This document shows positions 1 through 55,143 of a stretch of 64,000 nt of DNA, one piece after another; position 1 is the stretch's first letter; the number at the start of each line of letters is the position of its first letter. Source of the stretch: Somniosus microcephalus (Eukaryota); assembly GCA_052327205.1 (NCBI GenBank), contig CM126219.1, positions 22,940,001-23,004,000 of the forward strand, read 5' to 3'. Below the pieces are notes generated by a model, which searched no databases, was not told the DNA's origin, and worked only from the letters and a program-made list of their open reading frames with translations. A program made the position numbers and the translations under genes.

Positions 1-30
1 GCGTGCACATACACATAACACACAACCTAC

Positions 31-226
31 CTTCTACTGGAGAAGTTTTTAACCTTCTGCAGATATCTTGAACATCACCGTAAGTGTCGTGTATTTTACT
101 GACTGCTTCGCCAGATCGCAGTTCCATAAGGCCACGTAGATCCGCGACGGTGCAGCCAAATTCCCCCTCATGGTTGCCCTCGGCAACAGAGTTGCCTGGA
201 TGGTGGCCTGCTGAGTTATTAGTCAT
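31..226 (-). CDS. ATP2B4: First coding exon of plasma membrane Ca2+-transporting ATPase (PMCA4-like); the gene continues beyond the left edge of the window
   Basis: Manual translation from ATG at 226 gives [65 protein letters not shown](G). This is the PMCA N-terminus (FGC..ELR.LMELRS...RLKTSP.EG). It ends at a phase-1 donor GAAG|GTAGGT at 31/30, as expected for PMCA genes. The [18 protein letters not shown] start fits ATP2B4 better than the MGDM-start paralogs (from recall). The upstream acceptor is uncertain; one candidate is TTTTCAG at 325-331. Confidence 0.9.
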
Positions 227-1296
227 TTTTGCCCTCGGAAATGAAAAAAAGGTTCGAGCTGAAGCTTTGAAAGATCCACGCCAGAAGCTGGCACAGCCGT
301 CCTACTGATGGTTCCAATGGGAGCCTGAAAATTTCAAATTGGTTTTTAACTCTCTTGGCAGTGACGCAAACATCAGCAGAGTCCAACTTCCCCAGATAAA
401 GGCGTCGTAAGAACGTGCATATTACTGTAGCAGCAGCCTAGCAACAACTGTTTAGTCTCTTCTCTCGCATCCCTTGGTGCCAGGAAGCCACTGAGAAAGT
501 CTGAAAGACAAGGTGCAATGTGTTACTCAGATGGATCGATATTTGACATTCAGCTTTTAAAAACCGAGTGAGCTTGACCAAGAATTTAGCACTTGTAGCG
601 CAATGTACAGAAATGTACAATGCTGCTCACCATTCCTATGATTAAGAGTGCTCTCATTTTTGGTAGAGAAATCAAGTTTTTTTTTTAAAATAGTCTAACA
701 GATAAAAATCACTGAAAATGTTAAACTCCATAACATTCCCTAATATTTAACATTTATATGCTTTACTTGAAAAAAATTATGCAAAGCTAAAATGAAGTCT
801 CCATCAATGTCTTGTGTGGGTCAGAATGTCAATATTTCTGCAACAAACACTGTACTAGTTTCACCAGTGACATTTCTCCCCCCCCCCCCCTTCCATATAA
901 AGTGCATCCTTGGGATATAAACACCTGAAAAGGTGGAAATATACATGTGAGCAAACATGGTCCTCCAGTGCATCAATGAGGCCATTTTCATATTCAAAGC
1001 AATGCATGCTCACCCACAATCAAGAGCTGTATGAGACATATGCCAGCAGGTTAATGGTTCCCCAATCAGAATACCACTACTTTTACTATGAACTTTCCAG
1101 CTGGGCTTCCTACTTTAACACATGGCTATATGCAATGCCCATGCATTGAGGCTAGAAATTTCAGCTAGACTGGTAACGCTTCAGCTCCAATGCCCGCCAA
1201 TGTTCTCAGCAATGGGTGACTATCAGGCAGAGTAGTAGGTGCAGGCAGGTAGTGCAGCGGTCCCCTGTGGCCATCCCCCTTTCAAACAGATATACC

Positions 1297-2118
1297 ATAG
1301 AAACATAGAAGATAGGAGCAGGAGTAGGCCATTCAATGAGATCATGGCTGATCATCCAAATTCAGTACCCTGTCCCTGCCTTCTCCCTATATCCCTTGAT
1401 CCCTTTAACCTTAAGAAATATACCCAACTCTTTCTTGAATATATTTAATGAACTGGCCTCCACCGCCCTCTGTGGCAGAGAATTCCACAGGTTCACCACT
1501 CTCTGGGTGAAGAAATTCCTCCTCATTTCAGTCCTAAATGGCTTACCCCTTATCCTTAGACTATGACCCCTGGTTCTGGACTCCCCGGCCATCAGAAACA
1601 TCCTTCCTGCATCTAGTCTGTCCAGGCCTGACAGAATTTTATAGGTTTCGATGAGATCCCCTCTCAATCTTCTAAACTCGTGTGTATAAGCCCAATCGAC
1701 ACAATCTCTCCTCATACGTCATTCCTGCCATCCCAGGTATCAGCCTGGTGAATCTTCGCTGCACTCCTTCCATGGCAAGAACATCCTTCCTCAGGTAAGG
1801 CGACCAAAACTGCACACAATATTCAAGGTGCGGTCTCACCAAGGCCCTGTAGAAATGTAGCAAGACATCCTTGTTCCTGTACACGAACCCTCTTGCTACG
1901 AAGGCCAACATACCATTTGCCTTCTTAACCGCCTGCTGCACCTGCATGCTTACCTTCAGCGACTGGTGCACAAGAACACCCAGGTCTCTTTGCACTTCCC
2001 CTTCTCCCAATCTACTGCCATTCAAATAATAATCTGCCTTCCTGTTTTTGCCACCAAAGTGGATAACCTCACATTCATCCACATTATAGTGCATTTGCCA
2101 TGTTTCTGCCCAATCACC
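1297..2118 (-). mobile_element. CR1 LINE, 5'-truncated 3' fragment
   Basis: Minus-strand ORFs with CR1 RT C-terminus (LVRPHLEYCVQFWSP, RGDLIETYKIL, FFTQRVVNLWNSLP) and a TTCTATG-type tail at 1297-1315. Confidence 0.93.
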
Positions 2119-5100
2119 ACTTTGGATATTGTTGAGGGAGACAGCTTAAATCGGGGGAAGGCAGCAGCCGCCAACTTCTTGGCACCATGGGGGGTCCTGC
2201 TGCGCAGGACGGGAGGAAAAAGAGTGGGAGAGCTATAGTGATAGGGGATTCTATTGTAAGGGGAATAGATAGGCGTTTCTGCAGCCACAAACAAGACTCC
2301 AGAATGGTATGTTGCCTCCCTGGTACAAAGGTCAAGGATGTCTCTGGGCAGCTGCAGGGCATTCTGGAGAGGGGGGGGGGGGGGGGGGGAGGGTAAACAG
2401 CCAGTTGTCTTGGTGCATATAGGTACCAACGATATAGGTAAAAAAACAGGATGAGGTCCTAAAAGCTGAATATAGCGAGTTAGGAGGTAAATTAAAAAAA
2501 ATAGGACATCAAATGCAGTAATCTCAGGATTGCTACCAGTGCCACGTGCTAGTCAGAGTAGAAATAGAAGGCTATTTCAGATGAATACGTGGCTAGAGGA
2601 ATGGTGCAAGGGGGAGGGTTTCAAATTCCTGGGACATTGGAACCGGTTCTGGGGGAGGTGGGACCAGTACAAACTGGATGGTTTGCACCTGGGCAGGACC
2701 GGAACCGATGTTCGAGGGGGAGTGTTTGCTAGTGCTGTTGGGGAGGATTTAAACTAAAATGGCAGGGGGTTTGGAACCTGTGCAAGGAGACAGAGGAAAG
2801 GGAAGCAAGGATAGAAACAAAAGACAGGAAGGAGAAAAGCAAAAGTGGAAGGCAGAGAAATCAAGGGTGTAAATCAAACAGGGCTACAGTAAATAAGAAT
2901 GCTAAAAGGACTAAGTGTTAAAAAATCAAGCCTGAAGGCTTTGTGTCTTAATGCAAGGAGCATTCATAATAAAGGTGGATGAATTAGCTGCGCAAATAGA
3001 TGTAAATGGATAGGATATACTTGGGATTACGGAGACATGGCGCCAGGGTGACCAAGACTGGGAATTCAACATCCAGGGGTATTCAATATTCAGGATGGAC
3101 AGGAAAAAAGGAAAAGGAGGTGGGGTAGCATTGCTGGTTGAAGAGGACATTAACACAATAGTAAGGAAGGATATTAGCTCTGATGATGTGGAATCTGTAT
3201 GGGCAGAGCTGAGAAATACCAAGAGGCAGAAAACGTTAGAGAGTTGTATACAGACCCCCAAACAGTAATGCGGAGGTTGGGGATGGCATTAAACGGGAAA
3301 TTCGAGGGGCTTGCAATAAGGGCACAGCAGTTATCATGGGTGACTTTAATCTACATATAGATTGGGCTAACCAAATTAGTAACAATACTGTGGAGGAGGA
3401 ATTCCTAGAGTGTATACGGGATGGTTTCCTGGACCAATATGTCGAGGAACCAACTAGAGAGCAAGCCATCTTAGACTGGGTATTATGTAATGAGAAAGGA
3501 TTATTTAATAATCTTGTTGTGCGAGGCCCCTTGGGGAGGAGCGATCATAATATGATCGAATTCTTCATTAAGACGGAGAGTGAAGTAGTTGACTCAGAGA
3601 CTAGGGTCCTGAATTTAAATAAAGGAAACTACGATGGTGTGAGGCACGAGATGGCTAGGATGGATTGGAGAATGTTACTTAAAGGATTGATGGTGGATAG
3701 GCAATGGCAAACATTTGTTCATCCCGGTTTGGCATAAAAATAAAACAAAAAAGGTGACTCAACCATGGCTAACAAGGGAAATTAGGGATAGCATAAGATC
3801 CAAGGAGAGGACATATAATTTGGCCAGAAAAAGCAAACCTGAGGATTGGGAGCAGTTTAGGATTCAGCAAAGGAGGACAAAGGGATTCATTAAGAGGGGG
3901 GAAATAGATTAGGAGAGTAAGCTTGCAGGGAACATAAACAGTGACTGTAAAAGCTTCTATAGATATGTGAAGAGAAAAAGATTGGTGAAGTCAAGCATAG
4001 GTCCCTTGCAGTCAGAATCAGGGGAATTTATAATGGGAAACAAAGAAATGGCAGACCAATTAAATACAAACTTTGGTTCTGTCTTCACAAAGGAGGACAC
4101 AAATAACCTCCCAAAGATGTCGGGAACATGGGGTCTACTGAGAGGGAGGAATTGAATGAAATCAGTATTTGTAGAGAAATGGTGTTAGGGAAATTGATGG
4201 GATTGAAGGCCGATAAATCCCCAGGGCCTGATAATCTACATCCTAGGGTACTTAAGGAAGTGGCCCTAGAAATAGTAGATACATTGCTGGTCATCTTCCA
4301 AAATTCTAGAGACTCTGGAACAGTTCCCATGGATTGGTGGATAGCTAATGTAACCCCACTATTTAAAAAGTGTAGTAGAGAAAAAACGGGGAATTATAGA
4401 TCAGTAAGCCTGACATCAGTAGTGGGGAAAATGCTAGAGTCTATTATAAAAGATTAACAACACTGGAATTTTAAGGATGTAACTAGTAGAATAGATAAGG
4501 GAGAACCAGTGGATGTGGTGTATTTGGACTTTCAGAAGGCTTTCGATAAGGTCCTGCGTAAGAGATTAGCGTGCAAAGTTAAAGCACATGGGATTGGGGG
4601 TAAGGTACTGTCTTGGATAGAGAACTGGTTGGCAGACAGGAAGCAAAGAGTTGGAATAAACAGGTCTTTTTCCGAGTGGCAGACAGTGACTAGTGGGGTA
4701 CCACAGGGATCAGTGCTAGGACCCCAGCTATTCACAACTAGATGTAACATCTCCAAGTTTGCAGATGACACAAAGCTGGGTGGGCGTGTGTGCTGTGAGG
4801 AGGATGCAGAGAAACTCCAGTATGATTTTGACAGGTTGGGTGATTATACTGCATTTGCTATGCATCTGCCCAATGTGGATAAATGCAAGGTTATCCACTT
4901 CGGTGGCAAAAACAGGAAGGCAGATTATCTGAACTGTAGTAGATTGGGAATAGGGGAAGTGCAACGAGACCTTGGTGTCCTTGTGCACCAGTCACTGAAG
5001 GTAAGCATGCAGGTGCAGCAGGCAGTTAAGGCAGCAAATGGTATGTTGGCCTTCATAGCGAGAGGATTAGAGTACAGGAGCAAGGATGTCTTGCTGCAGT

Positions 5101-5678
5101 TGTACAGGGCCTTGGTGAGACCACACCTTGAGTATTGTGTGCAGTTTTGGTCGCCTTGAGGAAGGATGTTCTTGCCATGGAGAGTGTGCAGCGAAGATTC
5201 ACCAGACTGATACCTGGGATGGCAGGAATGACGTATGAGGAGAGATTGGGTCGCTTAGGCTTTTATTCGTTGGAGTTTAGAAGAATGAGAGGGGATCTCA
5301 TTGAAACTTATAAAATTCTAACAGGACTAGACAGACTAGATGCAGGAAGGATGTTCCCGATGGTGGGAGAGTCCAGAACCAGGGGTCACAGTCTAAGGAT
5401 AAGGGATAAGCCATTTTAGGACTGAGATGAGGAGGAATTTCTTCACCCAGAGGGTGGTGAACCTGTGGCATTCTCTAACACAGAAGGCAGTTGAGGCCAA
5501 TTCATTAAATATATTCAAGAAGGAGTTGGATATATTTCTTGAGGCTAAAGGGATCAAGGGATATGGGGAGAAAGCAGGGACAGGGTACTGAATTTGGATG
5601 ATCAGCCATGATCTCATTAAATGGCGGAGCAGGCTCGAGGGGCCGAATGGCCTACTCCTATCTTCTATGTTTTCTATC
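2119..5678 (+). mobile_element. CR1 LINE, near full length and degenerate (ORF1 SGNH/GDSL esterase fragment; ORF2 APE endonuclease plus RT)
   Basis: ORF1 VIGDSIVRG...DGLHL. Endonuclease motifs GDFN and SDH. RT motifs YLDFQKAFDKV, GVPQGSVLGP, KFADDTK. Many frameshifts. 3' tail TCTTCTATGTTTTCTAT. Confidence 0.95.
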
Positions 5679-6379
5679 TTTCAACCACAGGCCCCTCCCT
5701 CCATTAATTATTTAATATTTCTCCCTTCTTTTTGTATTGGAAACTTTGTATCCTGTTCCAGCTCAGCCCTACCAAAAGGTGCCTTTTCCTCCACTCTAAA
5801 ACGCCCAAGTTTAGGATTTCTGTCCTCTTCCAGTTAAACTTCGGCTGCTTTAAAATGAACAAACTGTCCCTTTAAGCAAGTTGAAAGAAACCCTACATTG
5901 CCAAGTAGCTGTAATATTTAAAATATTCCCCACAGCACTATTGCAGAAGAGCAAAGCTGGTTTGAGAAATCAATTACCAATGTGCAACACACATCTGCCC
6001 AAGCACTGGGGTCAGGGAGCTTGTTCACCAGATGGAATTGGGCAGTTAGTGAAATAGTAGTCTGGGATGGGCTCGATGGCCTACATGTTATGGAAAACTT
6101 TGGGCCCAAAATCCAGGCAAATATGGGCCAACTTTGGATGTGCCTCACTGTATCTTAGTGCAAAAAAGTTAACCCAGACTCGAATAAAATTTAATTCAAT
6201 TCTCAGAGTGCGGTACTGCACCTATTAAAAATTTAAATGAACAGAGGAATCCACACTGTGCACGTCTAAAGATTTTACTCACGATAGAATGTTGGTGGAA
6301 GTGGGGACCGGGGGGGGGGGGGGGGGGGTGGCGGCGGGGAGAAATCATACATGGAGTACCATGCATTAAACATCCGAGC

Positions 6380-6765
6380 CTAAACTACCCTCTCCATCAC
6401 CAATGTGGCTGCAGTGCATACCTTCTACAAGATTCACCAGAGCAACTCGCCACGACTTCAACAGCACCTCCCAAACCCTCACCGCCGTCACCTAGAAGGA
6501 CAAGGGCAGAAGGTCCATGAGAACACCATCACCTTCAAGTCCCTCTCCAAGTCACATGCCATTGTGACTTGGACATATATTGCCGTTCATTCATCATCAC
6601 TGGGTTCAAAATCCTGGAACTCCCTACCCAATAGAATTGTGGAAGCATCTTCACAACATGGACTGCAACGGTTCAAGGCAGCAGCCTGCCGCCACCTTCT
6701 CAAGGGCAACTATGGATGGGCATTAAATGCCAGCCTTGCCAGCAGTGCCCACATCCTGAGAATTC
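6380..6765 (+). mobile_element. 3' end of a non-LTR retrotransposon (clade uncertain; same family as 13270-14078)
   Basis: FYKIH.SNSPRL.QHLPNP...SKSWNSLP...RFKAAA..HLLKGN resembles a LINE RT C-terminus. Homologous to the reverse complement of 13270-13700. Confidence 0.75.
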
Positions 6766-9700
6766 CTTAATTGCAGAGCACGGACTGAAGCAAAAAGAAT
6801 CAGAAATATGGATCGCTACTTTAACTGAAATTCTAGTTTTCCTACCCACATTAACTGGTTGGCAACAGTTAGCTTAGGTTATTTTGCCCACCTCCTGTCA
6901 CTGAACAGAAATGAAAGGATCCACCCTCCCCACCCCAAAGTCAGAGAACTTACAGAATTATGTATGATTTCTTGATACAGAAATTAAAACTTCCTACATA
7001 TTCAGCAAGCTCGCTACTCCTAAATTTAAAAAAAACATCCCAATGCAGGAACTTGCATGTTCATTCTGTGACATGTAAAAATATACACATGAAAAACAAA
7101 AGCATAAATGAGCAGCAAAACACTCAGGAGTGCGAGTTTCTAAATAATTTATGTTCTCATCCCTTACGATTTTCCCCCTGCATACAGCAGCTGCTACATG
7201 GGCCATCGGGACAACATTAATATTTCTAATGCTGCCAAAGTTTAACTGCTTTCGGTTTCAGTAATTTCAGGGAAGAGGGAAATTGCAAACTTCAGTACAG
7301 AATGCAGTTTTCCGCAGTACAGACCTGTTGAGGATATTCAAAAAGGTAATTCTTTTTTCCATTCTATGAGCAAGAGAGACTCCTTTTTGCAAAGAGTTTA
7401 AACTTGGAGCATGCCCCAGGATAGACTGGTCTAAAAACCATGTTAGATTTACACTTCAATTAACAGTTCTGCTTCTGAAAAGTATTTGTGGCATTTTTTT
7501 AATCCTTCCCCCTTCTCCAATAATCACATTCATCAACTGAAAGGAGACAATCCACCTTCAGGGACACATCAACACAGTTGCTTGGTCTAGCCAACAGGTG
7601 GCACGCACATGACCACTGGTTGGTAGGCAACCCTTAATACCCAGATCGCCGTCCCTTCCCTCCCTCAGACCACCTGGCCAAATTGGCACACTTGTCCACA
7701 CCCCCCCCCCCCGCGTCCCCGAGAGGACAACTGCAAATAGTAATCAAAACCAGAATTCAAAGCCGAGTCACCCAGCTGAGAATCTGGAAACCGACTGGTG
7801 TTGTAGCTGTCAGGCCACCTGTTTGCCACTTTTATAATAACCCCTGTAACCCTTCCAGTGCCAGAAAGATTTTATATCGTACGTAAGTGCCTGGTTCGCA
7901 TTTGTTGAGTAAACAGAGCTAGTTTTAACACAGCTTCTGTGCACTGTATCTGTATATTTGATCAAGCAACACACACTTCCCCACATGCACACACACTCTC
8001 TCACACCCACCCATACACACACTCACTCACCCACACACAGCCCGCGCTGCTCATGAGCTGCAATTTCCAAATAGGCAACGATGTGATTCGTTGAAACTAA
8101 ATGCTGCATTCTGACGTCTCCCTCAAACACAGACTGATCAAGTCACCGCAGTAGAAAATGCAAAATTACTCGTCGCTGTCCTTAAAACACAATACTGCCA
8201 AACACATTGAACTAAAAAGGTTTTGAAAAGAGGATTTTTGTTTCTTTTAAATTAAAAAGGTAGGTGCCATACATTAGAAAAATGAAGCGGTTATTTTAAT
8301 ACTTATTAAAAAAGTCACAAATGTCATCACTCATGGCTAAGGATGCAGAACATTTAACAAGGTTTCTCCTGTTAACACAGCACTCTTGTAGAGTGTATAT
8401 CTCTATTGGGGGAAAAAAAGATTAACGGTACTCCCCATTCAACAAATTTAACCGCAGTAAGCAACTAAAAGCTGGGCATTTGCTACCTGCTAGCACCAGC
8501 ATGAACTGCCTCAAAAAAAGATAAATGACGACTAGCTGACAGAACATTTGCTGTCCCCAAATGGCACTGCTCACTTTTCTTCTCCACCGTCACTCACACA
8601 GGCCCAGAGGCCGGTCATGAGGAGGCTTCGTCTTTCGTCGCCTGCTGTCTGCTCCTGATGAGGTTTGTTTACGTTTTGGATGAAGAGATGACTCAGCCGT
8701 GGGCCAGAGAAGTCAGTGCTGTTCCGTGTAACGTGAGCAGCCAGGAAAATCCAGCAAACATCACTCTGCAGTTGCACAGTCTGGGGGAGGCTGAGGCGTG
8801 ACTGCAATTTAAGCACATGCAATTCCTTAGAAAATACTTGACATTCTAGTAAGGCAGGGGCTGTTGGGAACATTCAACGTCTTCCTTCCTCAGTCACTGG
8901 TGGTGAAAAACCATGCTGAATAGAACCTTTATTCTCACAGATAAGCACATTAAGATAATGTTAGCACTTATTCAAATAGATTAGTGTGTTTCACCACCAA
9001 TACCCCTTTTAAAGATCAGCTACAAAGAATTAAACATTAATATCCTTGAGTTTTGTTTGAGCTGATCCTACTTTAACTGTTTAAATGACAAGCACAGTTG
9101 CCAGGGGGAGCAGGAAGGAAACAGTGGATGATTGCTTAGAGGAATTACCAAGCCAAATATTAGGAGAAAACAAATTAACATACATACAGACAGCTGAAGC
9201 GCCCTGGGCTGAATGACGACATCAATTAATGTTAAAATCAATTCCCTTACACAGAATCAGAAATCCTCAAAGTCAGCACCTCCAGTCATCGAGACCCATT
9301 GTTCAGCATCAAAAACAGGCAGATATCCCAGTTGTAATTCTCTGCATTTTCTCCCCCTCAAAAAGCAGGTCCCTGATGGCAAGTCTGCATATTTTAGCAC
9401 AAGCCCACTACTTGTACTCTCAGTCCTCCCCTCAGTCACAATGCAGTAACGTTTAGCTCTGCCATCCTCACTGCCGTCTTTCCCCTGCAGCCAGCAGAGT
9501 TGATTCGGGAACGGACGGCCTGATTTCTCCTCTGTTTACTATCAATTACATTCTGTGGTCAAACAGGAAATCTACTTCAGTTGGCAGAATCTTTCCTTTC
9601 CCTCCCTGGCTGAAACGAATTGTTCCATCTGGCAGTCTGGCTCGAGAGCTAGCAAAACACACCCACCGACAACAAGTCAGATTCAAGGTCAGTCGCACAC

Positions 9701-23829: not shown

Positions 23830-25885
23830 ATGGAATTCCCCAAAGTTGGTCCAAGCAAAAGGAAGTGGTGTTAATCTTAAAACAGAAAATCGAGATATGC
23901 CAACGACTAGAAAAGGGGAGAGAAGCGCAACAACATTATGAATGAATTCAAAATTGGTTTGTCAACAATCTACGACATCAAATCGCAGAAGCACGGTGGC
24001 ATAGTGGTTAGCACTGTTGCCTCAGTGACAGGGACCCGGGTTCGAATCCTGCCTCGGGTGACTGTGTGGAGTTTGCACATTCTCCCGGTGTTTGCGTGGG
24101 TTTTCTCCAGGTGCTCCGGTTTCCTCCCACAGTCCAAAGATGTGCGGGTTAGGTTGATTGGCTATGATAAATTGACCCTTAGTGTTAGGGGGATTAAATA
24201 CTTGGGGATAGAGTGGGATATGTGTTGGTGTAGGGGTTACGGGGATCGGGTGGGATATGTGTCGGTGCAGGCTCGATGGGCCGAAATGGCCTCTATCTGC
24301 ACTGTGGGGTTTCTGTGATTCTGTGAAGGTTAGCTGCTCAAGTTTTATTCAAGCTCGGAGACATCTAAGAGTGTAGAGAAACGGCGTACGCTTCATAAGC
24401 CCAAGCTTGAAGAGCTGGATACCGTGCTCTATGAGTGGTTTTCTCTTAAGCGTTCAGGAGGGTGTTCCACTTTCCGGACCCATGCTAATCGAAAAAGCGA
24501 AGGATTTCTACGTAAAGATGGAGCTCACTGACAAGTGTGCTTTCTCCGAGGGATGGCTAACGTGCTTCAAGTTATGGCACGGGATACAACGACTCGATAT
24601 TTCCGGGGAGAAGAAATCAGCTGATCACGATGCCGCAGAAGAATACTGCGATTATTTCAATCGGATTGTGCAGCAACATGATTTGTCGCCAGCACAGATA
24701 TACAATGCCGATGAAACTGGCTTATTGGAGGTTTTTGCCAGAATCAACGCTTGCTGGGGCTAGTGCTTCAGGTTACAAGAAAAAAAGGTTACAAGAAAAA
24801 TAAAGATCGTCTAACCGTGCTAACGCTGCTGGATCACACTGGGTTAAACTTCTTGTTATTGGGAAGTATAAAAATCCCCGTGCATTTAAAAATGTGAGGC
24901 GCTTACCTGTTGAGTACAAAGCTCAAAGAAATGCTTGGATGGATAAGGAAATCTTTTCGTATTGGTTCCATCATATTTTTGTTCCATCTGTGAGGGAACA
25001 TTTCCGTAAAATAGGGAAACTTGAAGATAGCAAATGCATTTTATTGCTTGATAATTGTAGAGCCCATCCGCATGAATCCAAGTTGGTTTCGGGAAATATT
25101 TTCACCATTTATTTGCCACCAAATGTAACTTCTCTCATACAACCCATGGACCAGGGCATTATCCAAAGTCTCAAGTGTCATTACAAGAAAGACTTCCTAC
25201 GTAACCTGATAAAGCAAGATGACAATATTTACACATTTCAGAAGGAATACAATCTTAAAGATGCCATCTTTAATGTTGCATGTTCCTGGAACTTGGTGAA
25301 AGGTCACACGTTGAGACAAGCCTGGCGCAAATTGTGGCCTCCCGTAATGTTTGCTGAAGGTTCTTCAGAGGAGGAGGAATTTCATGGGTTCAATGTTCGT
25401 CCCAAGAGGAGTACAATAATGGAAATGGCTGGCATGGTGAAAAATGTAGGCCCAGCAAAACCTGTACGCAACCTCAGTGAAAGTGATACTGAGCAGTGGG
25501 TTGATGCAGATAGAGAAGTTGCTGTTGTGCCTATGCTAAGTGATGATGGAAATAATTTAGACTGTTTTGAATCCAAAGAAAGAAAAGTGAGATGGATAGT
25601 GAAGAGGATGAGATTTCTGAAGAGAAGGTGATTTCTTGGGCTAAAGCTGCCAAAGGATTTGCTTTATTCCTCCAATTTGCTGAAAGGCAGCCTTGCTACT
25701 CTGCCCAAGAAGTTATGCAACTCCATATTCTGCATTCCACTTTTCTACAAAAAAGGCAAGAGTCCACTAAGCAAGCAGACATCCGGGACATGTTTAGGAA
25801 AGCTTCCAAAAGAGTTGAAGCAGTGGAAGTGCCTGAAGAATCTGTTGAAGTGCATGATCCTGATGAACCAGCTGACTTGGAATAA
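23830..25885 (+). pseudogene. Pogo/Tigger transposase (HTH-psq, CENP-B HTH, DDE_1), frameshifted and split by a SINE
   Basis: [82 protein letters not shown]. The D-D-D catalytic triad is intact. Confidence 0.9.
23991..24325 (+). mobile_element. HE1-like tRNA-derived V-SINE inserted in the Tigger transposase
   Basis: A box TGGCATAGTGG, B box GGTTCGAATCC, V-domain GTGTGGAGTTTGCACATTCTCCC...GGTTTCCTCCCACAGTCCAAAGA, and a CR1-like tail. Confidence 0.9.
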
Positions 25886-30625: not shown

Positions 30626-30737
30626 TTTTGGGAATAAAAGTACTCTCACCCCAAGTGTTAGAAAGGGAAACGCACTTGCTAATTTAGAAATGAAGGAACT
30701 GCTGGCATAACGCCACTCGCTTCAGCGATTACCAGAT

Positions 30738-32199
30738 GGAGGACACCGCTCACTGCATCTACCACCAGGAGGACACCGCTCACTGCATCTACCACCAGGA
30801 AGACATAGCTCACTGCATCTACCACCAGGAAGACATAGCTCACTGCATCTACCACCAGGAAGACACCGCTCACTGCATCTACCACCAGGAGGACACAGCT
30901 CACTGCATCTACCACCAGGAGGACACCGCTCACTGCATCTACCACCAGGAGGACACCGCTCACTGCATCTACCACCAGGAGGACACCGCTCACTGCATCT
31001 ACCACCAGGAGGACACTGCTCACTGCATCTACCACCAGGAGGACACTGCTCACTGCATCTGCCACCAGGAAGACCTAGCTCACTGCATCTACCACCAGGA
31101 GGACACTGCTCACTGCATCTACCACCAGGAAGACCTAGCTCACAGCATCTACCACCAGGAGGACACTGCTCACTGCATCTACCACCAGGAGGACACTGCT
31201 CACTGCATCTACCACCAGGAAGACACCGCTCACTGCATCTACCACCAGGAGGACACCGCTCACTGCATCTACCACCAGGAGGACACTGCTCACTGCATCT
31301 ACCACCAGGAGGACACTGCTCACTGCATCTACCACCAGGAAGACACCGCTCACTGCATCTACCACCAGGAGGACACTGCTCACTGCATCTACCACCAGGA
31401 GGACACTGCTCACTGCATCTACCACCAGGAAGACACCGCTCACTGCATCTACCACCAGGAGGACACCGCTCACTGCATCTACCACCAGGAGGACACTGCT
31501 CACTGCATCTGCCACCAGGAAGACCTAGCTCACTGCATCTACCACCAGGAGGACACTGCTCACTGCATCTACCACCAGGAGGACACTGCTCACTGCATCT
31601 ACCACCAGGAGGACACCGCTCACTGCATCTACCACCAGGAGGACACTGCTCACTGCATCTACCACCAGGAGGACACCGCTCACTGCATCTACCACCAGGA
31701 GGACACCGCTCACTGCATCTACCACCAGGAAGACCTAGCTCACAGCATCTACCACCAGGAGGACACTGCTCACTGCATCTACCACCAGGAGGACACTGCT
31801 CACTGCATCTACCACCAGGAAGACCTAGCTCACTGCATCTACCACCAGGAAGACATAGCTCACTGCATCTACCACCAGGAAGACATAGCTCACTGCATCT
31901 ACCACCAGGAGGACACCGCTCACTGCATCTACCACCAGGAGGACACCGCTCACTGCATCTACCACCAGGAAGACACCGCTCACTGCATCTACCACCAGGA
32001 GGACACCGCTCACTGCATCTACCACCAGGAGGACACAGCTCACTGCATCTACCACCAGGAGGACACCGCGCACTGCATCTACCACCAGGAGGACACCGCT
32101 CACTGCATCTACCACCAGGAGGACACCGCTCACTGCATCTACCACCAGGAGGACATAGCTCACTGCATCTACCACCAGGAAGACACAGCCCACTGCATC
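30738..32199. repeat. 30-bp minisatellite, about 49 copies (GGACACCGCTCACTGCATCTACCACCAGGA)
   Basis: Exact 30-bp period with no indels and a few variant positions, visible directly in the sequence. Confidence 0.98.
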
Positions 32200-33964
32200 G
32201 ATTTCTTAGAACAAAGTAGTGCCCACTGAGCCACGACTGCTTCAGGCTACAGCAGAATGGGTGTTTAGGTTAGCAGAGGGGCAGCAAAATAATTATAGCA
32301 GATGCATTCCTATTGCTTGCAGGCAGAGCTAGCTTTACCAGCTAAGTTTTATTGAAACGCCTTAGAGAAAGGTGTCACAGCTTACAGAACCTGCTGCCCA
32401 TCTCAATAGATGTTTCCATTACTTGGAACTTTAGTTAACACACTGGCCATAATGTCAGGCAGGACAGCAGCAGGGTTGGTATGCATTAGTAGCATACAGC
32501 GACTGTCCTACAAACTGGCAGGGAAGAAAGCCATGCGTCCTCAAATGCTTTTATGGTTACTGGCAAAATGTCAAAAAAGGTGCGTGCATGAGTGAAGGAA
32601 GAGGAGCTCAGAAGCTATAACCTTGGGAATCTTTCCAGATTAGGAAGCAAAAGTCCTCCAGCTGTCACATAGATATCTATTGCAGCAACAATTAACATCT
32701 CCACTCTAATAATCTAATGATGCAGCGTAGTCTTCTATACAACAAATAGAAATGGCATCTAGCTTCTGCAATACTAATGGATGTCAATATTAAAGATCGA
32801 TTTAAAGAGGCGACATTATGTCAATTTAAATTCAGAGAATTTTCTGTGGTAAACATGGTTTAAGATTCAGAGAAGTATGAAGGCAAAGACAATGACAATC
32901 TTTTATTTTGAAAGTAATATTTAAAAAAGATTACTGGCTATATTGTTATTTTTGTCAACAGGGCAAAGTCCAACTTGAACATCTAATCATTGTGCTTAAA
33001 GTTATGGATGTAACAAGTTATTATTAATTGCTACAACAGGTTAAAATGCAGACGTTGCTTTTGAGACCGAGGTGGAGGAAGGTTTTCCCCATTAAGGAGA
33101 CAAAAGCTTGAGCGACTTATGAAATGAGATGAAATTGGGTTCCCTTGGTGCTGCTTCACACTTGAAGTGCCATCTTTATGGTCTCGTTTTGAACACCTCA
33201 ACTGTTTTTAAATAAGCGAATACTGTAGGGGCTCACCCTCAGAAGTTGAGAAAAGTTAGGTCAAAAATATCTGGCTAGTCAAATGATCGGACATTCTAAA
33301 GCCAGTTAAAAACCATGAATGCCCCGATTTATATGTTGTTAGCTACTTCATTGCTTCATTGAAGAAAATTAAACGTACAAATTTTGGTAGGAAAAAGGCA
33401 TCATTTAGACAGCCATTTTAGTAGCAGAGCTTCGCTACATTGCAACTTGATCTCCAAAACGTAGCTAACTCGAGGGTGTACTTTTATATACCATGCTCAA
33501 ACATCATCAGCCACAGGTGCCACGATGAGTGAACCCAGCCGTCTCACCCGCAGATTCTCCCTCCTCGTGTCCATGTGGGACTTTGCCGAGTAGCTTCCCA
33601 ACATCCAAGAGCCAGCTCCCCAATATCTAAGAGAGCGGACAACTTGCAATATAGGGCATTGTAGCAGTGAATATCCTACCACTGTACGGCACAGTAAGCT
33701 GACTGCCAAACCACTCTCTTCCATTGCTTAATTGCAGAGTTTCAGCTGTACAGGCAGTTTGGTCCTTACCGTTCCCTGCACAGTGACATCTAGATAAGTG
33801 ACTCATGCAAGAGCACAGAAAAGAGAAAAATATGCTGATGCTTCTTAGTGGCTCAATATCTATTTGCAGTGCCTTCCAGTCTAACACTACCTTCCAATCC
33901 AACTTCCAAGCTCCTCTAGTCAAGGGACTGCCAGAATCTTTTACTCCACAGAGCTCACTACAAA

Positions 33965-34743
33965 TCTATATATATATATAAAGCGGCTCTTCTGTCTGTC
34001 TGTCCTGATGTCTGTCCCGATGTCTGTCTGTCCGTCCGTTCTCTATACGTTTGAAAGTTAGAGCGTACCGACGCGCGCGTCGCCTCAAAAGAAAGCTTGC
34101 GATTCCGGACCGGTCATAGGCGTATTTATGTTTCGGCCGGACAAAAATCCCGCCCGCGGTATCCCAAAAACTTTCAGCGTTCCGCTCATTAGCATCTCGT
34201 TAACGACCGTGTGACGTCGAGGTCCACCAATCGGATGGCGGGCTCCTTCCTACAGTTGAGTGTCGAGTGACTCGACGATTGACCAATCCTACGCTTCGGT
34301 GACCTGACCGGTCGACCAATCGATGCGTGTGTGGGCGGGCCTTATCCTTCTGAACCGAGGTGAGTGGCCGCCATCTTGATTTTTCACAATTTTTCCCCCC
34401 ACACTTTGTGTGTGTTAGGGAGCTAAGGTAAATATTTTAATGATGTATTAGGGAATTAAATAACAATTTAATAGGGGGGGGGACGAGCCTCGGGAAATCG
34501 CAGGGGGGGGGGGCGCGAGCCTCGGGAAATCGCAGGGGGCTGACGCCGCCCGCCCGCCCACAGCGGCCGTCCATCAGCCGCGCGATATGCGGGGGACCTC
34601 AGCTCCTGACCTCAGGCGCTAGGCAGGGGAAGGGGCGAGACAGGGGAGAGGGGAGGGGACATGACAGGGAGAGGGGGGACACACAGGGGCAGGGAGACCA
34701 AGCGCCCCAAAATTGCCCTCGCAACGCGGGGCTCCCCAGCTAG
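33965..34743 (+). mobile_element. Non-autonomous Helitron (779 bp)
   Basis: Inserted between A (33964) and T (34744) with no TSD. The 5' end TCTATATATA is followed by a (TGTC)n microsatellite. A GC-rich hairpin GCCCTCGCAACGCGGGGC (34715-34732) lies 11 nt before the CTAG terminus. Confidence 0.88.
34205..34380 (+). promoter_or_regulatory. Putative Pol II promoter and first-exon donor inside the Helitron
   Basis: CRE-like TGACGTC at 34212. CCAAT at 34227, 34283 and 34316. GGGCGG at 34333. Donor GAG|GTGAGT at 34359/60. YY1-type GGCCGCCATCTTG at 34366-78. CpG-dense. Confidence 0.55.
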
Positions 34744-35384
34744 TGGCTTTATAAATCCTATGCAACGGGCAATATTACCACCCTTAAAAAGCTGCTGCTT
34801 GGCATGACCTCTTAAGGTCTTTACTAAAAGTATTCATAGAAACACTGGATGCATATTCATTAGCAGACACACACACTGCAATCATGGTGGCAAATGGACT
34901 GCCACATGAAGTTGCAAGCAATTCATCACCTTCCACACTAAATAATTCCTGAACTAAAAGCTTCAAATAAAATGTTATGTATATAACATATTATATAAAT
35001 AAAACTGATGGTATCTGAACCCCAGCAAAAAAACCTCAAATCCTGTTCACATGAAGAGGCTGTGTACTCTGACTTGACAGAGGTTGTGAAAATACACTCA
35101 CACAAACTGAGTTCACATAAAACAGCTGTATTTTTTCATTGGTTTTGGTTTACTCTGTCTGACATACCTGGGGAAAAAAAAATCTTGCTCATGTTTACAC
35201 AGGGTGGCTGAAACCTTGGCCAGTTGAATTGTGACATGCTTTGTGCGGAGGAGTCAGATCCACACTCAGAAACGGATCAAGACAATTACAATACATGCTA
35301 CACCTTTAACCTGTAAAAAAAACTAAACTTTGCTGTCTCTGCTGATCAACACATGCCCTGAGCATTCAAAGACAGTTTAACCCA

Positions 35385-35975
35385 CTGGAGCCCATTGTGT
35401 CTTTGAAAGAACTATCCAATTAGTCCCACTCCCCAGCTCTTTCCTCATAGCCTAGCAAATGTTTTCCTTTTCAAGTATTTATCCAATTCCCTTTTGAAAG
35501 TTATTACTGAATCTGCTTCCACCGCCCTTTCAGGCAGTGCATTCCAGATCATCAGAATTCACTGCGTAAAAAAAAATGTTGCCTCAAGATTTTGCGCACC
35601 TCTATCAAATCTTCCCTTAACCTTCTCTGCTTCAAGGAGCACCGCCCCAGTTTCTCTAGTCCCACCTAACTTAAGTATTTCATCCCTGGTACCATTCAGT
35701 GAATCTCCTCCGCACCCTCTAAGGCCTTGACATCCTTCCTAAAGTGCGGTGCCCAGAATTGGCCACAATACTCCAGCTGGAACCTAACCAGTGTTTTGTA
35801 AAGGTTTAGCATAACTTCCTTGCTTTTGTAGTCTATGCTTCGGTTTATAAAGCCAAGGATTTTTAGCCTTTTTAACAGCCTTCTCGCTTGTCCTGCCACC
35901 TTCTAAGACTTGTGTACGTACCACCCAGGGCTCGCTGTTCCTGCACCCCCCCCCCTTTAAAATTGTACCATTTAT
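35385..35975 (-). mobile_element. CR1 fragment
   Basis: ILGFINRSIDYKSKEVMLNLYKTLVRFQLEYCGQFWAPHFRKDVKALE. Confidence 0.85.
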
Positions 35976-40631: not shown

Positions 40632-40925
40632 AAAAGACTTGCATTTATATAGCGCTTCGATCAACTTCAGGACATCCCAAAGCGCTTTCTTTACAACCAA
40701 TTAGTACTTTTGAAGGCCAGGCAACATCCGTGGAGAGAAATTAGAGTTGACGTTTCGGGTCGAAACCCTTTTTCAAAAAAGGGTTTCGACCCGAAACATC
40801 AACTCTAATTTCTCTCCACGGATGTTGGCTGGCCTGCTGAGTTTTTCCAGCATTTTCTGTTATTTTGGATTTCCAGCATCTACAGTATTTCGCTATTGTA
40901 CTAGTACTTTTGAAGTGTAGTCATG
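40632..40925 (-). mobile_element. SacSINE1-like tail fragment, interrupted by a hairpin element
   Basis: AAAAGACTTGCATTTATATAGCGC...AGTACTTTTGAAG|TGTAGTCA. Confidence 0.75.
40716..40901 (+). mobile_element. Penelope-like short element with an inverted terminal duplication
   Basis: About 60-bp inverted arms with 2 mismatches, centred at about 40774. 14-bp TSD TAGTACTTTTGAAG at 40702-15 and 40902-15. Confidence 0.7.
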
Positions 40926-50526: not shown

Positions 50527-50841
50527 AACCACTTTTATCGTTCACTATCGTTACACTATGGTTATCACTGTTATATCGTTACACTATGGTTATCACTGTT
50601 TACACTGTTGTATCACTACACGAGGTCGCCTCTTGTCACGCTGTTATACCTGGGCTGACCACTGCTGACTCCGCCCATGGCTCCACCTACTTGCCCAGGT
50701 ATAAAAGTGGTCGACTGGCTGGTATTCCTCCTTGTTGGATCCGATCACCCACGAGGGTGGGCTCTGTTATTTAGCCAATAAAAACCTATAGTTACTTTCT
50801 TAACTCGTCGCTTTTCATTGGATGAATTGATAGGTATATCA
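50527..50841 (+). repeat. 5' LTR (lacks the first 7 nt, TGTGGTA)
   Basis: Direct repeat of 54829-55143. TATAAAA at 50700, AATAAA at 50777, ends TATCA. Confidence 0.95.
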
Positions 50842-50864
50842 ATTTTATTGGCTAAATTTTAAAA

Positions 50865-51725
50865 ATGTCTAACGAACCGTCAGACCAGTCAGACACCCAG
50901 CTACAACAGCCACAGCAGCCGGCCTGGCTGCGAGCCCTCCAACCGCCGTACCTGGATCTAAACCCACAGGCAGCAAACTCAGCCCTCGACTTCAAACACT
51001 GGCTGAGCTGTTTCGAATCCTACCTGGGAGAATCCGGCGTGCCTCAGAGATCCAAACTAAGAGTGCTGACCACCCAAGTGAGCCCTAAAGTATTCGCACT
51101 CATACAGGACCTTACTACATACGAGGCTGCCATCAACCTGCTGAAACAGCAGTACCGGAGCCCGGTAAATTCTATGTATGCCAGACACCTCCTAAGATCC
51201 CGCCCGCAACAGCCAGGAGAGTCTGTAGATGAATTTTTACGGGCGCTACAAACACTCGGCAGGGACTGTGACTTTAAAGCGGTAACGGCTGCAGAAAATA
51301 CTGAAGAGAATATCCGCGATGCCTTCGTGAAAGGCCTTCGGTCCGACTACTCACGGCAAAGACTGCTAGAATCAAAGGACCTCGACCTGAACACAGCTGC
51401 AGCCCTCGCCCGCTCCCTGGAAGTGGCCCATCGGGACCTCGAGGCATATTCCAGGTACTGTACTGCGCGACCCTGGGGCTCCGGCCCGACCCCAGCCGCA
51501 ATACCCCTCGCAACGCCGCCTCCGGGACCTACCTCAGCGTCGGTGTCCCAGAACTGATCGGGACCGCCACCCCCGGTACCGGCTGCAACATCGGACCCCC
51601 GCGATCGGGCCGCCGGCTGCTTCTTCTGTGGCCAGGCGAAACACCCGAGGATGCGCTGCCCTGCGAGAAACGCGACTTGCGCCCATTGCCAGAAGAAAGG
51701 CCACTTCGCTAAGGCCTGCAGGGGG
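50865..51725 (+). pseudogene. Gypsy gag with one in-frame stop (51555-57) before two CCHC zinc knuckles
   Basis: 230-aa ORF (ARHLL..R.QQPGESVDEFL..L...IRDAFVKGL). It continues in frame past TGA to CFFCGQAKHPRMRC and CAHCQKKGHFAKAC. Confidence 0.88.
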
Positions 51726-51989
51726 AGAGCCACAGACGCCAGCAGTGCCTCATGCGAATTGTGGGGGCGGCCATCTTTCATCCAGGCCACAGATGCCAGT
51801 ATCCTCGTGTGAGTCGTGGGGGCGGCCATCTTTGATCAAGGCGACCGACACCAGCAATGCCTCGTGAGTTGTGGGGGCAGCCATCTTATTTAACCTCGTG
51901 GGCGCCGCCATTTTGTCCACCACAGTCGACCGCCACCTTGTCGCCAGACCCGACCACCGCCTCACCCGCAGACTACAGCAGCTCGCTCA

Positions 51990-54671
51990 GCCATACACTA
52001 GCCTCCGTCACACTGGACCAAGCTCGCCCGCATCACCTGTCCAAGTCCATGATGGACATCAAAGTAAACGGCCACGCCACGACCTGCCTGTTCGACAGCG
52101 GAAGCACGGAGTTTCATACATCCAGACACGGTGAGCCACTACTCCCTCACTGTCCGGCCAACGCGCAACCGGATCTCGATGGCATCGAGGTCCCATTCTA
52201 CAGACATCAGCGGCTACTGTATTGTGACCCTGTCGGTTAGGGGCACGGAGTATAAAAATTTTAAACTCCTCGTCCTGCCCCAGCTCTGCGCTGCCGTCCT
52301 ACTAGGGCTGGACTTCCAATCCCACCTGCAAAGTGTCACTTTGGCATACGGTGGACCCCTCCCCCCACTCACAGTCGACAACCAGCAGCCTTTAAACCGC
52401 CCACCGCATACCACCTGCGGCCTATCCACCCTCAAGGTCCCGCCCCCCTCCCTGTTCGCTAACCTCACCTGCGACTGTAAACCCGTCGCCACCAAGAGCA
52501 GGCGGTACAGCGCCGGGGACAGAGCTTTTATTAGCTGTGAGGTGCAGCGTCTCCTGAAGGAGGGCATCATCGAGAGGAGCAACAGCCCCTGGCGTGCCCA
52601 GGTCGTAGTCGTTAAGACCGGCGATAAAAACCGCCTAGTCATCGACTACAGCCAAACCATAAACCGGTACACCCAGCTGGACGCATACCCCCTTCCCCGC
52701 ATATCTGATATGGTCAATCAGATTGCGCAGTACCGGGTATTCTCCACCATCGACCTTAAGTCGGCCAATCACCAACTCCCTATCCGCCCCGAGGACCACC
52801 AGTATACAGCCTTCGAGGCGAACGGCCGCCTCTACCACTTCCTTAGGGTTCCCTTCGGCGTCACCAACGGGGTTTCGGTCTTCCAAAGGGAGATGGACCG
52901 GATGGTTGACCAGAACGGGCTGCACGCCACGTTCCCCTATCTAGATAACGTCACCATCTGCGGCCGCGACCGGCAGGACCACGATGTTAATCTGGAACGA
53001 TTCCTCCGTACGGCCCAACGGCTGAACCTCACCTACAATAAGGAGAAATGTGTGTTTAACACCTCGCGCCTTGCCATCCTCGGCTGCGTAGTAGAGAACG
53101 GAGTCATCGGCCCCGACCCCGAAAGAATTCGCCCCCTCATGGAGCTTCCCCTCCCCCACTGTCCAAAGGCGCTGAAGAGAACCCTGGGGCTCTTCGCCTA
53201 CTATGCCCAATGGGTGCCAAATTATGCAGACAAAGCCAGACCCCTCATGAAGTCCACCTCCTTCCCCCTGACGGCAGAAGCGTGCGCAGCCTTCTCCCTC
53301 ATTAAGGGAGACATTGCTAAGGCCACAATGCACGCGGTGGATGAGTCTATCCCTTTCCAAGTGGAGAGCGATGCATCAGACTTCGCCCTAGCCACAACCC
53401 TCAACCAGGAGGGGAGACCGGTGGCCGCCTTCTCAAGGACCCTCCAGGGCCCTGAGATCCGACACTCTTCGGTCGAGGAGGCGGCCCAGGCGATCGTGGA
53501 GGCTGTACGACGCTGGAGGCATTACCTGGCAGGCAAACGATTTACCCTCCTCACCGACCAGCGTTCGGTCGCTTTTATGTTTAATAACAAGCTGAGGGGC
53601 AAAATCAAGAACGACAAGATCTTGAGGTGGAGAATCGAGCTCTCCACCTATGATTATGATATCTTGTACCGGCCTGGTAAACTGAACGAACCCCCAGATG
53701 CTCTATCACGAAGTACATGCGCCAACGTGCAAACTGATAGACTGCAGACCCTCCACAACGACCTCTGCCACCCCGGGGTCACCAGACTTTACCACTTCAT
53801 TAAGGCCCGCAACCTGCCATACTCCATCGGAGGAGGTCAGGACCATGACCAGGAACTGCCAAACCTGTGCCGAATGCAAACCGCATTTCTTTAGGCCGGA
53901 CAGAGCAAGCCTGATCAAGGCCACCCGCCCCTTCGAGCGCTTGAGCATCGATTTTAAGGGGCCCCTCCCATCCTCTGACCGTAATGTGTACTCAACATCA
54001 TTGATGAGTACTCCCGTTTCCCCTTTGCCTTCCCCTGCCCAGACATGACCAGCACCACGGTCATCAAATGCCTGAACGACCTCTTCGCCTTGTTAAGGTT
54101 CCCAAACTATATACATAGCGACCGGGGCTCCTCCTTCATGAGCGAGGAACTCCGCCAGTTCCTATTAGCGAGAGGTATCGCTGCAAGCAGGACCACCAGC
54201 TACAACCCCCGAGGGAACGGCCAGGTGGAGAGAGAGAAGGCGACTGTCTGGAAGGCCGTTCTCTTAGCCTTAAAGTCTAAGGGCCTCCCAACCTCTCGCT
54301 GGCAGGAAGTCCTCCCGGCAGCGCTGCATTCCATCCGGTCACTGCTTTGCACTGCCATTAACGCCACCCCCCATGAACGAATGTTTGTTTTCCCCAGGAA
54401 ATCGACTACGGGAACCACGCTGCCAACTTGGCTGACTTCTCCGGGGCCCGTCTTACTGCGAAAGCATGTGAGGGCCCATAAAACAGACCCCCTGGTCGAG
54501 AGGGTGGTCCTCCTACACGCCAACCCCCAGTACGCCTACGTGGCATACCCAGACGGGCGGGAGGACACAGTCTCCTTACGAGACCTTGCACCCTCGGGCA
54601 CCCGAGACACCACCGTCACCCCCCCAAATCCAGCCCAGGTAGACAGCATGCCGGAACCCCACGATCCTTAG
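51990..54671 (+). pseudogene. Gypsy pol (protease, RT, RNase H, integrase) with a few frameshifts
   Basis: LFDSGST; SNSPW, IDLKSA, VPFG, YLDN; ESDAS, TDQ; HNDLCHPG..CQTC, SIDFKGP, SDRG, GNGQVER. Confidence 0.93.
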
Positions 54672-54821
54672 TCAACCACGCAGACACCAGCATTAACACC
54701 GGAGACTGCAACACCGCCGCCGCGCCGATCAGAAAGACTTACGAGGCCTCCGGACAGACTGACATACCCGAACTGGTAGTACACTTCACCCCGCCAGACT
54801 CAAATCTAAACAAGGGGTGAA

Positions 54822-55143
54822 TGTGGTAAACCACTTTTATCGTTCACTACCATTACACTATGGTTATCACTGTTATATCGTTACACTATGGTTATCACTG
54901 TTTACACTGTTGTATCACTACACGAGGTCGCCTCTTGTCACGCTGTTATACCTGGGCTGACCACTGCTGACTCCGCCCATGGCTCCACCTACTTGCCCAG
55001 GTATAAAGGTGGTCGACTGGCTGGTATTCCTCCTTGTTGGATCCAATCACCCACGAGGATGGGCTCTGTTATTTAGCCAATAAAAACCTATAGTTACTTT
55101 CTTAACTCGTCGCTTTTCATTGGATGAATTGATAGGTATATCA
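54822..55143 (+). repeat. 3' LTR (322 bp, TG...CA)
   Basis: Starts TGTGG immediately after the PPT and ends TATCA. Confidence 0.96.

Follow-up and report, generated by a model that had tools for sequence, protein, structure and literature searches.

The ordered block of promoter-like motifs carried by a short Helitron of Somniosus microcephalus is, with a probability that we put at about 0.82, the RepHel Helitrons' own promoter, non-coding exon 1, and intron-1 splice donor, and the copy studied here is a derivative formed by internal deletion and probably silent. This copy lies in a 64,000-nt stretch of contig CM126219.1 (hereafter, the window), from the first letter of which positions are counted (Table 1). 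In full-length elements, tandem TGAC-11bp-CCAAT units, which are predicted PBX/PREP and NF-Y sites, would together with a GC box start transcription at a pyrimidine-rich stretch, and the resulting exon of ~20 nt would be spliced from the donor GAG/GTGAGT (the slash marks the junction) over a pyrimidine-rich intron of 0.5–6 kb to an acceptor one base before the RepHel ATG. The internal deletion in the window copy would have removed this acceptor and the ORF, leaving the donor orphaned. Because the short derivatives keep the few hundred bases that adjoin the 5' terminus, the block persists in them.

Table 1. Features of the window, in order of position (nt from the first letter of the window).
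Feature	Position	Strand	Remarks
First coding exon of PMCA (ATP2B) gene	29..226	-	phmmer PMCA2 (E 8e-18) and PMCA1
Non-autonomous Helitron1-type element, 779 bp	33965..34743	+	Between A and T
5' part common to autonomous RepHel Helitrons: TC(TA)n, (TGTC)n microsatellite, promoter block, exon 1, start of intron 1 (last three putative)	33965..34470	+	88% identity, element nt 1-507 vs L071:336-836 (= L052)
Unit 1: GTGTGAC (overlaps CRE-like TGACG), 11 bp, CCAAT	34209..34231	+	Degenerate DECA-CCAAT unit; its CCAAT deleted in 13/30 copies
CRE-like TGACGTC	34212	+	
CCAAT boxes	34227, 34283, 34316	+	Last two 33 bp apart
Palindrome GTCGAGTGACTCGAC	34262	+	
Unit 2: GAGTGAC, 11 bp, CCAAT	34265..34287	+	Holds most of palindrome; exact match to published GAnnGAC-11bp-CCAAT
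Unit 3: CGGTGAC, 12 bp, CCAAT	34297..34320	+	11 bp in most autonomous relatives
GC box GGGCGG	34333..34338	+	Intact in 24/30 position-ordered copies
Pyrimidine-rich CCTTATCCTTCT	34340	+	
Presumed start region (pyrimidine-rich) and non-coding mini exon 1	34340..34359	+	Start site inferred; CCT(T/A)ATC core aligned in 12/12 autonomous cassettes
Splice donor GAG/GTGAGT	34357-34365, GT at 34360	+	Orphan donor, RepHel acceptor missing
Donor plus YY1-like GCCGCCATCTT	34357..34377	+	
YY1-like CCGCCATCTT	34368	+	
G-rich minisatellite, 2 units in window copy	34474..34539	+	Most other copies have more units
Conserved 3' terminus with putative short bulged hairpin 7 nt before CTAG	34651..34743	+	Hairpin 34715-34732

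The boundaries of the element are those of a Helitron. At its 5' edge, the A at 33964 is followed by the TC terminus of TC(TA)n at 33965, and at its 3' edge CTAG (34740–34743) is followed by a T at 34744. Among the 30 best-matching copies of the genome, the strict 5' pattern was found at 28 loci and the 3' CTAG also at 28, with T as the next base in 28 of 28. The flanks of the copies are mutually unrelated, which, with the A preceding TC in the window copy, fits insertion between A and T without target duplication. The 7-bp bulged stem near the 3' end was read by eye, and the minimum-energy DNA fold paired the same stretch differently. A search of the shark's own genome returned 983 candidates, 40 of them scored with 97–100%, and a 27-mer spanning the donor and the YY1-like site had 3,373 exact matches in the genome compared with 0 for a control. 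These termini and matches uphold the claim of an earlier note on this DNA that a Helitron carries an ordered promoter, mini-exon, and donor block, and place that block in thousands of copies.

Short copies have common termini, differing flanks, and differing internal minisatellites, and head-to-tail tandems are frequent. With a mean divergence of ~1.7% (22 copies), this is, as judged from the sequences, a young non-autonomous Helitron family. RepHel frames of ~1,500 codons run without interruption at three loci (L072, L073, and L074); such intact frames, together with short copies that are 97–98% identical, suggest that the family was active recently. Helitrons in this genome often start right after the CTAG end of another Helitron, even across subfamilies, as seen on the 3' side at L075, L076, L082, and L083 and on the 5' side at L009, L014, L015, and L028.

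All of the motifs claimed for the block in the earlier note were found on the plus strand, in the claimed order and places. When the sequence from 34190 to 34400 was dinucleotide-shuffled 5,000 times, three same-strand CCAAT boxes occurred in 7 shuffles, the donor in 19, and the YY1-like site in 53, and the combination of three CCAAT boxes, donor, YY1-like site, and GC box occurred in 0. The combination is thus beyond chance, with the surprise somewhat overstated because the motifs were chosen post hoc.

Autonomous relatives were identified by a profile search of the genome with PF14214. This search resulted in 407 candidates, 150 of which were scored, and the 10 kb upstream was taken for 20 matches with long frames. 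One locus (L071) is an 8.2-kb element (337–8493) with TC at 337, the donor at 726, a putative intron of 503 nt, the ATG at 1230, and CTAG at 8493. The acceptor of this element lies one base before the ATG, and the RepHel frame continues to 5960 with one stop in its N-terminal part. Pfam matches in L071 were STPR, Helitron_like_N, REP_ORF2-G2P, and PIF1 (PF14214, PF05970, PF23343). The first 507 nt of the window element are 88% identical to the 5' end of L052/L071, compared with 67–83% for nine other autonomous copies, and the 3' end of L071 is related to that of the window element but diverged. Between 5960 and 8000, L071 also contains tandem partial duplicates of the helicase-coding segment, each near a CAG/GTAAG donor-like site.

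The same layout recurs in the other autonomous copies. An acceptor context directly precedes the RepHel ATG in 18 of the 20 copies, with CAG intact in 16, and in 12 of the 20 a CCAAT-flanked donor lies 0.5–6 kb upstream, the interval being free of matches to the 3'-end pattern. The predicted donor-to-acceptor introns of these 12 copies have a pyrimidine fraction of 0.58–0.97. The pair of CCAAT boxes and donor was not seen in the 10 kb fetched for each of the other 8 copies, and the RepHel acceptor was found in 0 of 28 short copies. Identity among autonomous copies is mostly 60–96% for the cassette as against 93–98% for the ORF. Co-inheritance of cassette and ORF was considered and rejected, as their identities are uncorrelated (Spearman 0.15, P 0.27) in a set in which one cassette is a duplicated segment. 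The sequence upstream of RepHel at L051 and L067 has another promoter-like layout, in which 69-bp units that each contain GACCAATC form an array and a separate donor follows ~1.4 kb downstream, distant from the CCAAT array of these copies; this suggests exchange of 5' modules among subfamilies.

Comparison of the 12 autonomous cassettes indicated which motifs are kept. The GC box, CCT(T/A)ATC, and AG/GTGAG are present in all 12, whereas CCAAT units have been gained and lost. The palindrome, listed earlier among the motifs of the block, is intact in 20 of 30 position-ordered copies but in only 1 of the 12 autonomous cassettes, and its interpretation as a functional unit, a hairpin or dimer site, was rejected for this lack of conservation. 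A similar fate befell the 33-bp distance between the last two CCAAT boxes, which the earlier note had described as typical of tandem NF-Y promoters. In the autonomous cassettes these boxes are 32 bp apart in 8, 33 bp in 1, 37 bp in 1, and 42 bp in 2, and double CCAAT boxes in the human genome peak at spacings of 19, 24–27, 36, and 43 bp in the portion of the genome-wide survey available to us (PMC4889920), so that 33 bp falls outside the peaks given there. A 33-bp spacing ascribed to the promoter of cyclin B2 found no confirmation in the literature searched. The spacing is 33 rather than 32 bp because the gap in Unit 3 is one of 12 bp here and of 11 bp in most autonomous relatives, and it is best regarded as a subfamily variant.

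What the palindrome does contain is a core, GAGTGAC, located exactly 11 bp before the middle CCAAT box. This is the arrangement of the DECA-CCAAT composite, GAnnGAC-11bp-CCAAT, described as bound by PBX/PREP, NF-Y, and Sp2 in the part of the report available to us (bioRxiv 10.64898/2026.02.16.706105). The window has 184 CCAAT boxes on its two strands, and the one in Unit 2 is the sole box with this composite. Across the family, 100 distinct CCAAT contexts were collected from 99 cassettes; GAnnGAC lies 11 bp before CCAAT in 40 of them and at other spacings in 3, and TGAC lies 11 bp before CCAAT in 59. These contexts are related by descent, and the counts therefore reflect conservation of one geometry and not independent origins. 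The CRE-like site is a degenerate form of the DECA-CCAAT unit.

Private changes were counted in 22 copies, with 8 of the 30 (older subfamilies and one truncated copy) and variants common to at least three copies excluded. Motif columns without CpG had 3 private changes in 902 compared with 19 in 1,387 for non-motif cassette columns (P 0.014), but changes in the same motif columns were not fewer than in the 5' arm (14 in 2,509, P 0.58). The evidence for selection on the motifs in short copies is thus mixed, and weak selection may act on some copies.

The earlier note had likened the block to the host promoters captured by bat Helitrons and proposed an independent mobile promoter in sharks. This part of the note is not supported, as the block most probably forms the 5' end of the Helitrons' own RepHel transcription unit and the genome search for a non-Helitron source locus yielded no Helitron-free source in 60 loci. 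These loci comprised the 30 best matches and the first 30 of the 3,373 27-mer matches, and all are Helitron copies, a sample chosen by close match in which a diverged source could be missed. One locus (L097), which lacks the 5' end and looked free of Helitron sequence on that side, was rejected as a source because it proved to be a truncated copy that adjoins another repeat and retains the 3' part of the Helitron.

Capture could instead have occurred at the root of the family, an ancestral Helitron having long ago taken a host promoter, first exon, and donor that it then used as the promoter of RepHel. The layout of the block does resemble that of vertebrate housekeeping promoters, and a diverged single-copy source would be out of reach of close-match searches. 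Bat Helitrons provide the precedent, having taken the promoters of 15 genes according to the accessible parts of two reports (PMC4224331, PMC4778049). We nevertheless regard ancestral capture as unlikely, given that the cassette is present in every sampled subfamily, even at a cassette identity of ~63%, and has an acceptor of its own at the RepHel ATG, that none of the 60 loci is a source, and that the CCAAT array is made of the element's own tandem unit.

Transcription was examined with two RNA runs from a related organism (deposited under another species label), which were mapped on L071 with strands called by the usual library convention. Over the RepHel ORF, reads in the orientation predicted for sense RNA outnumbered the others by 6.4:1 in one run and by 5.2:1 in the other, and did so in 20 of the 21 bins of each run. 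Such reads fit an internal promoter in some full-length copies; alternatively, they could stem from host transcripts that contain a few copies in sense orientation. The segment of L071 from 6116 to 6300 has high RNA depth, also in sense. Over the L071 cassette, reads of both orientations were found, also upstream of the presumed start, a pattern that passive transcription would give. In these two runs on L071, the 15 joints listed of 17 included no read spliced from donor to acceptor, and reads did not pile up at a start site. Chimeric transcripts from the element donor were likewise not found among the joints and loose ends listed, which exclude a further 789 loose ends, an exon of 20 nt being hard to align.

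The methylation state of the copies was approached through the decay of their CpG sites. In the 22 copies, private transitions were found at 35 of 1,588 CpG sites compared with 9 of 1,957 other C/G sites, a 4.9-fold excess (P 4e-6) that is 4.6-fold within the cassette, and this excess implies germline methylation of typical copies. The window copy has 7 differences from the family majority, 2 of which are C-to-T.

A PMCA gene has its first coding exon near the start of the window, and an exon matching PF00690 (Cation_ATPase_N) was found 44 kb beyond it on the same strand. The cassette points away from the PMCA gene, antisense to it, and is 33.7 kb upstream of its ATG. The antisense position that had been claimed relative to ATP2B4 is supported at the level of the ATP2B family by the exon at 226–29 on the minus strand. 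The start of the gene was sought through CpG-rich stretches in the window and the next 200 kb and was not located, the stretches in those 200 kb having no clear assignment, so that the element may lie in an intron or upstream of the gene. The CpG-rich 500-bp stretches of the window itself are in the element or in or near other transposon-derived DNA.

With all of its motifs intact, the window copy might be an active promoter that produces RNA antisense to the PMCA gene or serves as its alternative start. In addition, CpG observed/expected is 1.04 in the element and 0.43 in the window, one acceptor-like site lies downstream at 35450, and HelibatN3 is reported to act as an exon trap in cells in the accessible part of that study (PMC4778049). 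A high CpG content, however, is expected of a family with a mean divergence of 1.7%, and the CpG decay, to which the C-to-T differences of the window copy itself would belong, implies methylation. An alternative PMCA start would moreover need firing on the minus strand and a minus-strand donor, for which only four weak donor-like candidates (33236–33958) were found, and splice-like sites of these kinds are common by chance. Activity of this copy is therefore very improbable in our estimation.

Least credible of all is that the motifs have no promoter role and are a by-product of short-unit tandem duplication in a CpG-rich repeat of young age. In favor of this, the CCAAT boxes derive from a single unit repeated in variable number, and no start site was seen; against it, the order of donor, intron, and acceptor fits the position of the RepHel ATG, the 11-bp geometry is held while the spacer letters vary, and the RNA of the RepHel ORF is in sense.

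The window contains several other repeats. A Gypsy-like LTR retrotransposon (50527–55128) is CpG-rich, has direct repeats that are 98% identical and 4.3 kb apart, and has matches to gag, protease, RT, RNase H, and integrase in separate frames. At ~30690–32270 there are ~50 copies of a 30-bp unit with three long open frames. A DDE_1 transposase fragment is located at 24804–25631 (Pfam E 5e-50), and a near-perfect 60-bp inverted repeat with arms 2 nt apart is located at 40714–40835.

Interpreted as a carrier of the RepHel Helitrons' own promoter, the window element belongs with ordinary Helitron1 derivatives and mostly shows ordinary transposon anatomy, with an autonomous partner (L071) that has Rep and Pif1 helicase domains and common ends. 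The closest described system, Heli1Xen1 of Xenopus laevis (HLE1), has a promoter presumed at the 5' end of its autonomous locus from ChIP peaks and a 5' UTR (PMC12001565). As far as the accessible text of that paper goes, the two systems have in common the 5' TC, the 3' CTAG with a hairpin (putative in the shark), the A-T site, tandem arrays, and short derivatives beside copies with long ORFs; they differ in their terminal sequences, and no CCAAT array, mini exon, or 5'-UTR intron is described there for the short copies. The cassettes also agree with DECA-CCAAT promoters (bioRxiv 10.64898/2026.02.16.706105) in that CCAAT follows GAnnGAC at a distance of exactly 11 bp and that each promoter has several such units. 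The available text of that preprint, in whose main part the string 'transpos' is absent, describes the composite for mammal and zebrafish host promoters, whereas the shark sites are predicted from sequence. Searches of open-access literature listings turned up neither a study of NF-Y or DECA-CCAAT sites in the promoter of a Helitron nor one of Helitron promoters in sharks, and the arrangement laid out here, in which a vertebrate Helitron would have a promoter, mini exon, and 5'-UTR intron of its own, was likewise not found described.

HelibatN3 of Myotis bats, which carries the NUBPL promoter and a donor (PMC4778049, PMC4224331), offers the most instructive comparison. According to the parts of these papers available to us, it is likewise a short Helitron with a promoter, a first exon, and an unpaired donor in thousands of copies, and the shark copies could trap exons in the same way. 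Its cargo, however, comes from an identified host gene and includes six coding codons, whereas the shark block maps to the RepHel gene of the Helitrons themselves, contains no ATG in its mini exon, and is an exon trap only potentially. The cargo homologous to a non-Helitron host promoter that defines the HelibatN3 type has no counterpart here, with 0 of the 60 loci, all from the shark's own genome, being free of Helitron sequence. This case warns that a promoter-like block in a Helitron may be something other than DNA taken from a host. Should part of the 3,373 copies be active, this large shark genome would owe to the family many alternative starts and PBX/NF-Y sites. A more far-reaching proposal, which we offer tentatively and consider rather doubtful, is that RepHel is driven by tandem DECA-CCAAT (PBX/PREP, NF-Y, Sp2) modules and that, of the more than 3,000 scattered copies of promoter and unpaired donor, a fraction escapes methylation and acts as self-made exon traps or developmental enhancers, by which these Helitrons would have reached the outcome of HelibatN3 without capture of a host gene.
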